Origin: Alphaproteobacteria bacterium
GTDB lineage: Bacteria > Pseudomonadota > Alphaproteobacteria > MPNO01
Assembly (NCBI GenBank): GCA_964291675.2
Contig: OZ219866.1
Span: 1,344,001-1,408,000, forward strand
Length of the DNA: 64,000 nt
Direction: 5' to 3'
The notes beneath the pieces are model-generated. The model made no database searches and was not told where the DNA came from. It saw only the letters and a program-made list of their open reading frames with translations. The position numbers were made by a program, and so were the translations under genes. This document shows, in pieces, positions 47,604 to 49,389 of the stretch; within the stretch, counting starts at the first letter, position 1, and each line of letters opens with the position of its first letter.

Positions 47604-47703
47604 GGCTTACAAAGATAAGTTGACGAACGGGAGGCCAACGACACCTCTTCCGTCATGCCCGGTCGCCGGAACGAGCCGGGGGGTGTCGGCGCTTCCCCAA
47701 CCA

Positions 47704-47792
47704 CGTCATGGCCGGACTTGATCCGGCCATCCACGCGGCCTCTCCACCCGCACGACGGTCCGGCGGGACGGGTGGCGGCGCCCATGGATGCC
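47704..47792. repeat. CGTC-tagged REP, family B (left arm plus start of the interrupted right arm)
   Basis: CGTCATGGCCGGACTTGATCCGGCCATCCA...ATGGATGCC, then the IS. Confidence 0.85.
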
Positions 47793-47873
47793 CGATGGAG
47801 TGGACGCCCCCTCCGACGGCATCTGTGTGCCAAAGTGGCGGTGTCATCAACCCACTTGGAGGAGGGAGCATCC

Positions 47874-48905
47874 ATGGCCGAGGTTAGCATGATCGGGATC
47901 GATCTTTCGAAGCGGAGTTTTCAGCTGCACGGGATGTGCGCGGACGGCTCGGTGGGTTTCCGCCGGACGCTGAGCCGCGGCAGGCTGCTCGCCTTTGTGG
48001 CGCGTCAGCCGCGCTGCGTGGTGGCGATGGAGGCGTGCGGGGGTGCGCATCACTGGGGTCGCGAGATCCTCGATCTGGGCCATGAGGTGCGGCTGGTGCC
48101 GCCGGTCTATGTGAAGCCCTTCGTGAAGCGCCAGAAGAACGATGCGGCGGATGCGGCGGCGATCTGCGAGGCGGCGTCGCGGCCGACCATGAGCCTGGTT
48201 GCGGTGAAGACGGCCGAGCAGCAGAGCCGCGGCATGCTGTTCCGGGTGCGCGATCTCCTGGTGCGCCAGCGCACCCAGGCGCTCGACGCGCTGCGCGGCC
48301 ATCTGGCGGAGTTCGGGCTGGTGGCGCCGAAGGGTCCGGCGAGTGTCGGCAAGCTCGCGGTGGCGCTGGAGGCTGCGCGGGCCGGTCTGCCGGACCGGGT
48401 GGGCGAGCTCGCCGGGGTGCTGCTGGAGCAGATCGCCGGGCTGGACGAACAGGTCGCCGAGCTCGACAAGGAGCTGCGCGCCGAGGCGCGGCGGGATGCG
48501 GATGCGCGCCGGCTGATGACCATACCGGGGGTCGGGCCGGTCACCGCGATGGCGATCCAGGCCTTCGCGCCGCCGCTCGACGGGTTCCGCCGCGGGCGCG
48601 ACTTCTCGGCCTGGCTCGGGCTGGTGCCGCGCCAGCACACGACGGCCGGCAAGCCGCGGCTGGGCAGGATATCGAAGATGGGCCAGCGCGATCTCAGGCG
48701 GCTCTTGGTGCTCGGCGCCATGTCGGTGGTCCGCAGCGCCGGGCGCCACGACACGGTGCGCGACCCGTGGCTGGCCGGGATGCTGGCCACCAGGAAGCCG
48801 AAGAAGCTGATCGCCGTGGCGCTGGCCAACCGCACCGCGCGCATCGCCTGGGCGATGACCACGAGACAGCAGAGCTACCGGGCGCCCGCGCCGAACACCG
48901 CCTGA
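47874..48905 (+). CDS. IS110 DEDD transposase/recombinase
   Basis: IGIDLSK, VAMEACGGAHHW, QKNDAADA, TIPGVGP, AWLGLVP, ISKMG; the PRQHTTAG segment has Thr where SSGG is typical. Confidence 0.96.
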   Translation: MAEVSMIGIDLSKRSFQLHGMCADGSVGFRRTLSRGRLLAFVARQPRCVVAMEACGGAHHWGREILDLGHEVRLVPPVYVKPFVKRQKNDAADAAAICEAASRPTMSLVAVKTAEQQSRGMLFRVRDLLVRQRTQALDALRGHLAEFGLVAPKGPASVGKLAVALEAARAGLPDRVGELAGVLLEQIAGLDEQVAELDKELRAEARRDADARRLMTIPGVGPVTAMAIQAFAPPLDGFRRGRDFSAWLGLVPRQHTTAGKPRLGRISKMGQRDLRRLLVLGAMSVVRSAGRHDTVRDPWLAGMLATRKPKKLIAVALANRTARIAWAMTTRQQSYRAPAPNTA

Positions 48906-48959
48906 GCGCGGCGGATGCGGGCCGCCGTCGGCAGTGCGGGCGAGGTCTGAGGACGGGTA

Positions 48960-49100
48960 AGGACAAACGGTCGATGAGACGGGATCGGGAAAACCAGTTT
49001 GATCCGGCGCGCCGAAGAGCACGCGTGCCCGTATGCCATACAGGCCCGCGGCGCCGCATAGGCCGCAAGCAGAGGCCGCATAGACGACAGCACCTGACCG
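48960..49100 (+). ncRNA. Putative bridge/seekRNA in the IS 3' non-coding region
   Basis: TTGATCCGG (48999-49007) is complementary to the target flank; CATAGACGA (49079-49087) equals the circle junction; boundaries approximate. Confidence 0.65.
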
Positions 49101-49153
49101 CACTGTCCGAACCGTTCGAAAAAAAACCTTGCACCGCCGGGGGCGTCCATAGA

Positions 49154-49389
49154 CGGATCAAGTCCGGGCATGACGAGGGAGGGCCGGGGGCGACGGCGGC
49201 ATGCGACGACGCGTTGCGCGTGTCGCGATCCGTGTCCCGATCCGGCGGATGGGCCGGAAATCCGCGCGTACCGAGGCTTTGCGCCCGGTCCAGCTCATCC
49301 AAACCGGACAGCAGTGGCCTCGATCCGGGCATCTCCCTCCGCCGACTCTCTTGCGGGCCGCATGGATGGCCGGATCAAGTCCGGCCATG
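49154..49389. repeat. Family B REP arms (rest of the interrupted arm at 49154-49175; further arm at about 49362-49389)
   Basis: CGGATCAAGTCCGGGCATGACG and ATGGATGGCCGGATCAAGTCCGGCCATG. Confidence 0.8.

Follow-up and report, generated by a model that had tools for sequence, protein, structure and literature searches.

In the stretch analyzed here (the window; 64,000 nucleotides of contig OZ219866.1 from an Alphaproteobacteria bacterium), positions 47795 through 49153 hold one of four copies of an insertion sequence (IS) of the IS1111 group. Judged from sequence, its DEDD recombinase is very probably guided by an RNA encoded downstream of the recombinase gene (RNA core, 48968 through 49100) to the target GTGCC-CG-GATCAA, in which hyphens set off the core dinucleotide. 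The ends of the element, its core, the multiplicity of its target, an RNA scaffold conserved with compensatory changes, and the co-variation of three of its four guides were all observed in this genome or among relatives.

The ends were fixed by alignment of the four genomic copies and their flanks with empty sites. A genome search using 47600 through 49200 as the query returned four full copies (the window copy, L002, L003, and L004) and more than 100 matches to the flanks only. Query positions 104 through 195, which belong to the repeat flank, recur IS-free at dozens of places and are joined there to 49154 onward; at the empty sites the two halves of the repeat are directly joined with a 2-nt overlap, which places the core CG. 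Excluding this core, the IS measures 1359 bp. All four copies are inserted at the same CG of the same repeat, in one orientation, and there is no longer target duplication. L003 and L004, whose RNA gene is intact, are 17 bp longer than the window IS, having an additional segment of 18 nt and one A fewer in a homopolymer. The parts of the element and its surroundings are the following.

47703 to 47794, forward strand: left part of the host repeat unit (REP-like), known from the empty sites and the flanks of the four copies; it ends in ...GGATGCC (left half of the targeted hairpin) and the core CG (47793 to 47794).
47795 to 49153, forward strand: the IS1111-group insertion sequence; its ends are identical in the four genomic copies.
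47795 to 47811, forward strand: IS left end, a 7-nt extension (ATGGAGT) and the left subterminal inverted repeat GGACGCCCCC (47802 to 47811).
47874 to 48905, forward strand: transposase/recombinase gene, 343 aa, matching PF01548 (2.3e-12) and PF02371 (4.5e-22) and aligned to the IS621 and ISCro4 transposase chains.
49139 to 49155, forward strand: IS right end, the right subterminal inverted repeat GGGGGCGTCC (49139 to 49148), a 5-nt extension (ATAGA, 49149 to 49153), and the core CG (49154 to 49155).
49156 to 49332, forward strand: GATCAAGTCCGGGC, which is the right half of the targeted hairpin, with the remainder of a 177-bp repeat unit; the 177 bp are found at five other places with 96.6 to 98.9% identity.

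The subterminal inverted repeats are 10 bp long (11 to 14 bp in relatives), within the range of about 7 to 17 bp that characterizes the IS1111 group, and are set in from the left and right ends by 7 nt and 5 nt, respectively; directly to the right of the core CG at 49154 and 49155 lies GATCAAGTCC. Noncoding DNA amounts to 79 nt upstream of the transposase gene (47795 through 47873) versus 248 nt downstream (48906 through 49153). A longer noncoding region downstream of the transposase gene is the IS1111 criterion given in PMC11187229, and subterminal repeats with a downstream noncoding region form the IS1111 layout as described in the corresponding parts of PMC11187229 and PMC11208160. Based on its ends, its layout, and its DEDD domains, we place the element in the IS1111 group of the IS110 family. 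The ends predict a circle junction of CATAGA-CG-ATGG; a preliminary description of this DNA had assumed this junction and this target, and both agree with the ends obtained from the four copies and the empty sites.

The DEDD residues of the recombinase (D10, E53, D90, and D93) are matched by acidic residues in the IS621 chain, and the solved IS621 and ISCro4 transposase chains align to the window protein at E 2e-10. The nucleophile motif reads GLVPRQHT-TA-G, with T257-A258 (48642 through 48647) instead of the usual S/T-G; T257 is aligned with the Ser of the IS621 ESG motif. Ala258 is present in all four genomic copies, each with an intact open reading frame (ORF); in a scan of 80 loci, S/T-G is found in all 79 homologue genes whose motif could be read. 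According to the text of PMC11187229 on this motif, TA at GL-P----S/T-G is an occasional variant in IS1111 transposases (about 330 to 350 aa). From the sequence, the activity of a T257-A258 recombinase would not be assured. At 48646, contigs of relatives from sequencing runs have G for C, which changes Ala to Gly.

The target of the IS, (G)TGCC-CG-GATCAA, lies in the loop region of a REP-like hairpin that is part of a larger repeat unit and, uninterrupted, reads GCCCGGA-TCAAG-TCCGGGC. Counting both strands, the genome contains 103 exact copies of the hairpin 19-mer and 123 exact uninterrupted TGCCCGGATCAA sites. The earlier claim of a multicopy repeat with a CG core as the target is borne out by these 123 sites and by the position of four of four copies at the same CG. 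The same repeat family includes a second hairpin type, GGCCGGA-(CTTGA or TCAAG)-TCCGGCC (window 47711 through 47729 and 49362 through 49380), which differs from the targeted hairpin at the core-adjacent base; GGCCGGATCAAGTCCGGCC of this type has 99 exact copies in the genome; the hairpins of this type contain none of the four IS copies. Outside the window, the genome also holds eight near-identical copies of another IS110-family element (e.g., G000:C2:2999695-2999949), with conserved left flanks that contain the REP-like GTGGGTGCCCGGAACGAGGCCGGGG; one of them lies ∼1.5 kb from L002.

Four words in the downstream noncoding DNA had been read as guides in the preliminary description, and direct reading places each where it was claimed: TTGATCCGG at 48999 through 49007, TGCCCG at 49026 through 49031, CCAT at 49036 through 49039, and CATAGACGA at 49079 through 49087. 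In 20,000 dinucleotide-preserving shuffles of 48906 through 49138, with a word counted anywhere, the shuffle frequency was 0.00075 for TTGATCCGG, 0.00065 for CATAGACGA, 0.127 for TGCCCG, and 0.46 for CCAT; the two 9-mers occurred jointly in 0 of 20,000. The caution that came with the words, that the short matches are individually weak, holds for TGCCCG, which is marginal, and for CCAT, which is at chance level, but not for the two 9-mers, each of which is significant alone. All four words sit at homologous positions in the family alignment, and it is only from this position that TGCCCG and CCAT gain meaning.

The features of the RNA gene are given below; its helices are called P1 through P5, names that we take to follow, by analogy, those of published bridge RNAs.

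48968 to 49100, forward strand: core of the putative bridge/seekRNA gene, from the P1 5′ strand CGGTCG (48968 to 48973) to the P1 3′ strand TGACCG (49095 to 49100); 133 nt here and 151 nt in intact copies.
48980 to 48989, forward strand: P2 5′ strand CGGGATCGGG, of the stem at the base of the target-binding arm; the window copy has lost the partner strand CCCGATCCG.
48998 to 49007, forward strand: right target guide UUUGAUCCGG, complementary to top-strand CCGGATCAA(g) across the core.
49009 to 49022, forward strand: P3, apical hairpin of the target arm, with 4 bp and a 6-nt loop in the family and a C.A mismatch in this element.
49024 to 49031, forward strand: left target guide CGUGCC plus core CG, of the same sequence as top-strand (G)GTGCC-CG, so that it would pair with the bottom strand.
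49032 to 49041, forward strand: right donor guide region UAUGCCAUAC, in which only CCAU (49036 to 49039) is complementary to left-end ATGG.
49043 to 49077, forward strand: P4 (GGCC at 49043 to 49046 with GGCC at 49074 to 49077) around hairpin P5 (GCGGC at 49048 to 49052 with GCCGC at 49062 to 49066).
49078 to 49087, forward strand: left donor guide GCAUAGACGA, of the same sequence as right end CATAGA plus core CG and the first base of the left end.

The C.A mismatch in P3 is common to all four genomic copies. In this element the right donor guide makes four Watson-Crick pairs, all four copies having GCCAU versus the CUCCAU of the family (against ATGGAG); by comparison of these sequences, the family CTCCAT survives in the CCAT donor match only in degenerate form.

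Relatives were collected by scanning one genome per species. The best 80 of 544 stretches were kept (transposase identity, 59 to 73%); they come from MAGs labeled Alphaproteobacteria, Vicinamibacterales, Longimicrobiales, Binatia, and others. When the two sides of each gene were searched for inverted repeats, the family GTGGACGCCCCC-type repeat turned up, spaced as expected, at 55 loci, and 42 distinct noncoding regions (39 non-own regions and three own copies) align over their whole length. The common scaffold begins with GGUAAGGGCAAA, the P1 5′ strand (CGGUCA), GAGAC, the P2 5′ strand (GGGAUCGGG), AAAA, and P2b (CCA); continues through a variable segment, the P3 hairpin, a second variable segment ending in the core and A, UUUGGA, and the P2 3′ strand (CCCGAUCCG); and closes with CGUAUCUCCAUAC, P4/P5, G(ACACA-core-A), and the P1 3′ strand. 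Across the 39-sequence alignment, the proposed structure has 94.6% of its cells paired versus at most 44.8% when the partners are slid, and compensatory changes on both sides are present in 14 of 31 pairs (five of the eight pairs of P2); 0 of 500 shuffles reach the observed values. Pair 62-77 of the first structure, unpaired in 28 of 38 sequences, was dropped, leaving P3 with 4 bp; pair 19-182 is weak, with 15 sequences unpaired. A covariance model built from the same alignment matches downstream of the gene in 77 of the 80 loci (E ≤ 0.001), with 37 of the 80 in the training alignment and therefore matching by construction; the three misses (L054, L063, and L105) are truncated or broken loci. 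Searched with this model, the own genome yielded no orphan or divergent RNA genes besides the four IS-borne copies. An Rfam scan of 47400 through 49500 matched no bridge-RNA family, and a hit to ASdes (minus strand, inside the transposase gene; 21.2 bits versus a cutoff of 40, E 0.096) was taken as chance.

Small shares of window words occur in two sponge metatranscriptome runs; these data consist of contigs only, include relatives, and may derive from DNA in the libraries, and they were therefore not counted as expression. In X22, five of the seven listed pieces fall on 48910 through 49031, and the deepest bin is 48938 through 48993. One X22 contig follows the conserved scaffold to 48996 and continues with a different right-guide segment and P3; read from its sequence, it is a relative with another target, in an RNA library. 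None of the joints listed for the sequencing runs is a circle junction (right end-CG-left end); joints of 47729 through 47768 to 49154 are other, empty repeat copies.

The variable segments of the scaffold change with the DNA that surrounds each element. We compared every variable segment with the element's own flanks in 54 elements with both ends defined, leaving out L066, where the contig stops, and L045, L100, and L110, for which no ends were found; the permutation set, which excluded the window copy, consisted of 33 distinct guide pairs, and flanks were permuted among elements 10,000 times. The left target guide (six non-core bases of the 3′ segment) is identical to the own left flank at 169 of 198 positions, where permutation gave a mean of 63.0 and a maximum of 95. 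The right target guide was scored as the reverse complement of the 5′ segment. Confined to a single register, it agrees with the right flank at 128 of 231 positions (permutation mean 63.8, maximum 92), a score that understates the match because the register is shifted by one in 9 of the 33 elements; with three registers allowed for true and permuted pairs alike, the count is 210 of 297 (mean 123.8, maximum 154). Six of the 33 right target guides are poor, matching the flank at 2 to 4 of 9 positions even with three registers. Individual targets include AAGTC-CG-GGCATGA in L034 (guides GAAGUC-CG and UCAUGUG-CG), AAGTG-CG-GCCATGA in L059, and AAAAT-TG-ACCCCC in L032; L058, in another genome, has GGGCCC-CG-GATCAAG, the site equivalent to that of the window element.

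The left donor guide, the segment that follows P4, likewise reproduces the right-end extension and core, at seven of seven positions in 21 of 26 distinct end types and at six of seven in the other five, over a set with eight right-end types and both CG and TG cores. The right donor guide CUCCAU is complementary to left-end ATGGAG and nearly invariant across the family: one compensatory change is seen (L103, ATGGCG with CGCCAU), and the guide is unchanged despite an altered left end in L056/L058, L071, and the L042 group. Handshake guides like those of IS621 were considered and set aside; the base after the core of the left target guide (A, then U) matches the left end AT, but that A is invariant in the family, and in the part of PMC11208158 that describes them the IS621 handshake bases sit in the other guide.

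Identical segments in the face of different targets, the outcome named beforehand as contrary to a guide function, did not occur for three of the four segments; the CCAT segment is the nearly invariant one. The proposal of a bridge/seekRNA of an IS1111-type recombinase is thereby upheld by the layout, by segments that vary with flanks and ends in homologues, and by the order of the guides, which is the one reported for IS1111 seekRNAs in the relevant passages of PMC11187229 (top-strand-complementary guide 5′ of the bottom-strand guide).

Some relatives have unusual insertion sites or junctions. L031 (1440 through 1500 and 2790 through 2960) is inserted in the bridge-RNA gene of another IS of the same family, with flanks GGGCAAA-CG-GTCAATCGAGACGGGATCGGG and a second covariance-model match at 2781 through 2953; its guides match that conserved scaffold site, and its own copy of the site is without the C of the core. 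L052 (1206 through 1374, plus IS flanks) sits in the right subterminal repeat of another family member at the target CGGGGG-CG-TCCATAGACG; the RNA gene of the host element is directly upstream, and the right target guide matches the end of the host, not that of L052 itself. In L064, the IS is followed to the end of the locus by a perfect tandem array (L064:2663-3996; period 131 nt, 10.2 copies, 100% matches), the unit of which extends from the right donor guide region to the right end; repeated recombination at an internal CG may have produced it, or it may be an assembly artifact. The right junction is CA in L092 through L094, L096, and L106, versus CG at the left junction and in the left guides, and their right target guide has UG at that place, which could pair with either. 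L064 also has CA at its right junction; its right target guide has CG there, and its right flank is unmatched (2 of 7 positions). In such CA-junction insertions, target cores may differ from donor cores.

The RNA gene of the window copy carries a deletion of the kind suspected in the preliminary description: 18 nt after 49029 are absent from the window copy and L002 and present in L003 and L004.

49029 to 49030, forward strand: deletion site; intact copies have CGATTTGGACCCGATCCG, with CG microhomology; UUUGGA and the entire P2 3′ strand fall within the lost segment.

These 18 nt are present in every one of the 39 distinct non-own homologues. Between short and long copies, the deletion is linked to three substitutions (one of them V42 versus L42) and an A8/A7 homopolymer difference, and the two short copies lie at different loci with different upstream flanks. 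By sequence comparison, the deletion is derived, in a lineage that was copied after it arose. The covariance-model score is 103.4 bits for the window copy versus 162 to 163 bits for intact copies. In the predicted fold of the intact copies P2 closes the target loop; in the predicted minimum-free-energy fold of the window copy, GGGAUCGG, left without its partner, is paired to the right target guide, so that an alternative pairing raised earlier as a caveat is recovered (GGGATCGG with the TTTGATCC guide).

Going by these models, the RNA of the window copy itself is probably defective, and the copy would depend on the intact ones. The short lineage may have spread by means of RNA from the two intact copies, by recombination or conversion between copies, or with a short RNA that still works. 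It is conceivable, if on balance doubtful, that a lineage with a defective bridge RNA and an intact recombinase gene reached its second locus using the guide RNA of intact sisters; if so, a bridge RNA would naturally be working in trans inside one genome, with one IS lineage as a parasite on the RNA of its siblings.

The best surviving alternative, which we nonetheless consider rather unlikely, accepts the same system and takes the 18-nt loss as not disabling, for example with the guides and P3 intact and the protein holding the loop open, which would make the window copy autonomous. The window copy still has both target guides and the core, its transposase ORF is intact, and the occurrence of the deleted lineage at two loci with different upstream flanks means that it was copied after the deletion and could still move by itself. 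Trans copying or conversion between copies, however, explains the two loci equally well; P2 is present in all 39 non-own homologues, with its compensatory changes; the model score is ∼60 bits lower; and the right target guide is sequestered in the predicted fold.

Less probable again, and in our view improbable, is an artifact of assembly or polishing, with all four copies long in reality. In run X1, the best holder of this DNA, the sole contig listed across 49029 has the 18 letters inserted behind 49029, and no short-form contig is among the matches listed; given this long-form contig, it is from the assembly that the short form is known. Yet two separately assembled copies have the gap, and in both it comes with the same three substitutions and A8/A7 difference. 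The X1 contigs, moreover, break at 48044/48045, the site of a linked difference at which both letters are listed, and contigs drop variants, with 586 further pieces beyond the matches listed. The reading that we prefer thus remains a true deletion with a probably defective RNA in the window copy.

For the element in its intact form, we propose a mechanism in which the action of a recombinase-bound RNA, and the chemistry, are taken by analogy from published IS1111/IS110 systems. The recombinase would bind an RNA whose outer stem, P1, encloses a target-binding arm and a second hairpin arm (P4/P5). The target arm would be made up of stem P2/P2b, an internal loop, and hairpin P3. On the 5′ side of this loop, UUGAUC-CG-G (48998 through 49007) would pair with the top strand, C-CG-GATCAA, to the right of the insertion point; on its 3′ side, GUGCC-CG (49025 through 49031) would pair with the bottom strand of GTGCC-CG to the left. 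Two single-stranded donor guides in a multiloop would flank the P4/P5 arm, CAUAGA-CG-A (49079 through 49087; right end plus core) and CCAU (49036 through 49039; left end) together holding the junction of the circularized element. Strand exchange at the CG core common to the circularized IS and the target would then give insertion in one orientation.

It is highly improbable that no guide RNA exists and that the matches act at the level of DNA, as captured fragments of the target or as subterminal sites bound by protein. Internal repeats of terminal sequence are frequent in IS ends, and the guide RNA of this element is itself predicted from sequence; but five helices around the segments are kept by compensatory changes, which fits a folded single strand rather than sites in duplex DNA. 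Of the two target guides, moreover, one has the reverse complement of the target and the other its sense, with an overlap at the core, as in experimentally shown seekRNAs and bridge RNAs, and the guides follow 33 different targets.

Taken as an RNA-guided recombinase, the element is one whose guides are readable from sequence, and its relatives amount to 33 natural reprogrammings on one scaffold, among them insertions of relatives into the opposite arm of a similar REP-type hairpin and core changes between CG and TG. For the IS1111 branch, on which less work has been done than on IS621, this set could inform rules for how long guides are, which register they use, and which mismatches they tolerate. 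IS1111 elements that target REP sequences have already been published together with their seekRNAs/bridge RNAs, and the window element does not change what is known; close relatives may be among the ISfinder-wide predictions of Supplementary Table 5 of PMC11208160. What is added here is the family-wide covariation set and the deleted lineage.

Among known systems, ISPa11, an IS1111-family element with a REP target in Pseudomonas aeruginosa, has had its seekRNA purified and mapped (Siddiquee et al. 2024, PMC11187229). As that paper describes it in the sections on this element, ISPa11 shares with the window element a noncoding region downstream of the transposase gene, subterminal inverted repeats, a REP hairpin as the target, and an RNA in which a top-strand-complementary segment lies 5′ to a bottom-strand segment and overlaps with it at the insertion point. 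The likeness is one of description: host and target sequence differ, the RNA is predicted here and was purified for ISPa11, and the window copy differs further in its 18-nt RNA-gene deletion and in the T-A at the S/T-G motif of its recombinase. ISPpu9/Ssr9 of Pseudomonas putida (PMC12288879) is similarly an IS110-family element sited in REP sequences, and its transposase gene is followed by a small-RNA gene; the P. putida genome has extra orphan copies of the RNA gene, whereas the covariance-model search finds only four copies in the genome of the window, all IS-borne.

The bridge RNA of IS621, of the IS110 group (Durrant et al. 2024, PMC11208160; Hiraizumi et al. 2024, PMC11208158), is, in the accounts of its architecture given there, likewise a two-part RNA with target and donor guides, each of which reads the two DNA strands around the shared core dinucleotide, used by a recombinase with DEDD and Tnp domains. 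Unlike that of IS621, which is encoded in the left end, the window RNA is encoded in the right end, and the order of its guides is reversed. Its donor guides would lie in a multiloop, not in an internal loop, an arrangement attributed to many IS1111 orthologues in the text of PMC11208160 on them; the subterminal inverted repeats are long, the core is CG (CT in IS621), and a Thr is aligned with the nucleophile Ser of IS621. A close precedent for the natural redirection is the pair ISEc11/ISXne4, relatives ∼72% identical in their transposases in which, as set out in the comparison given in PMC11187229, the RNA stems are kept and the target-matching loop segments differ with the flanks. The same pattern holds between the window element and L034, L059, L042, and others, extended here, by sequence comparison, to 33 distinct guide pairs, CG-to-TG core switches, and a right-end donor guide that covaries.
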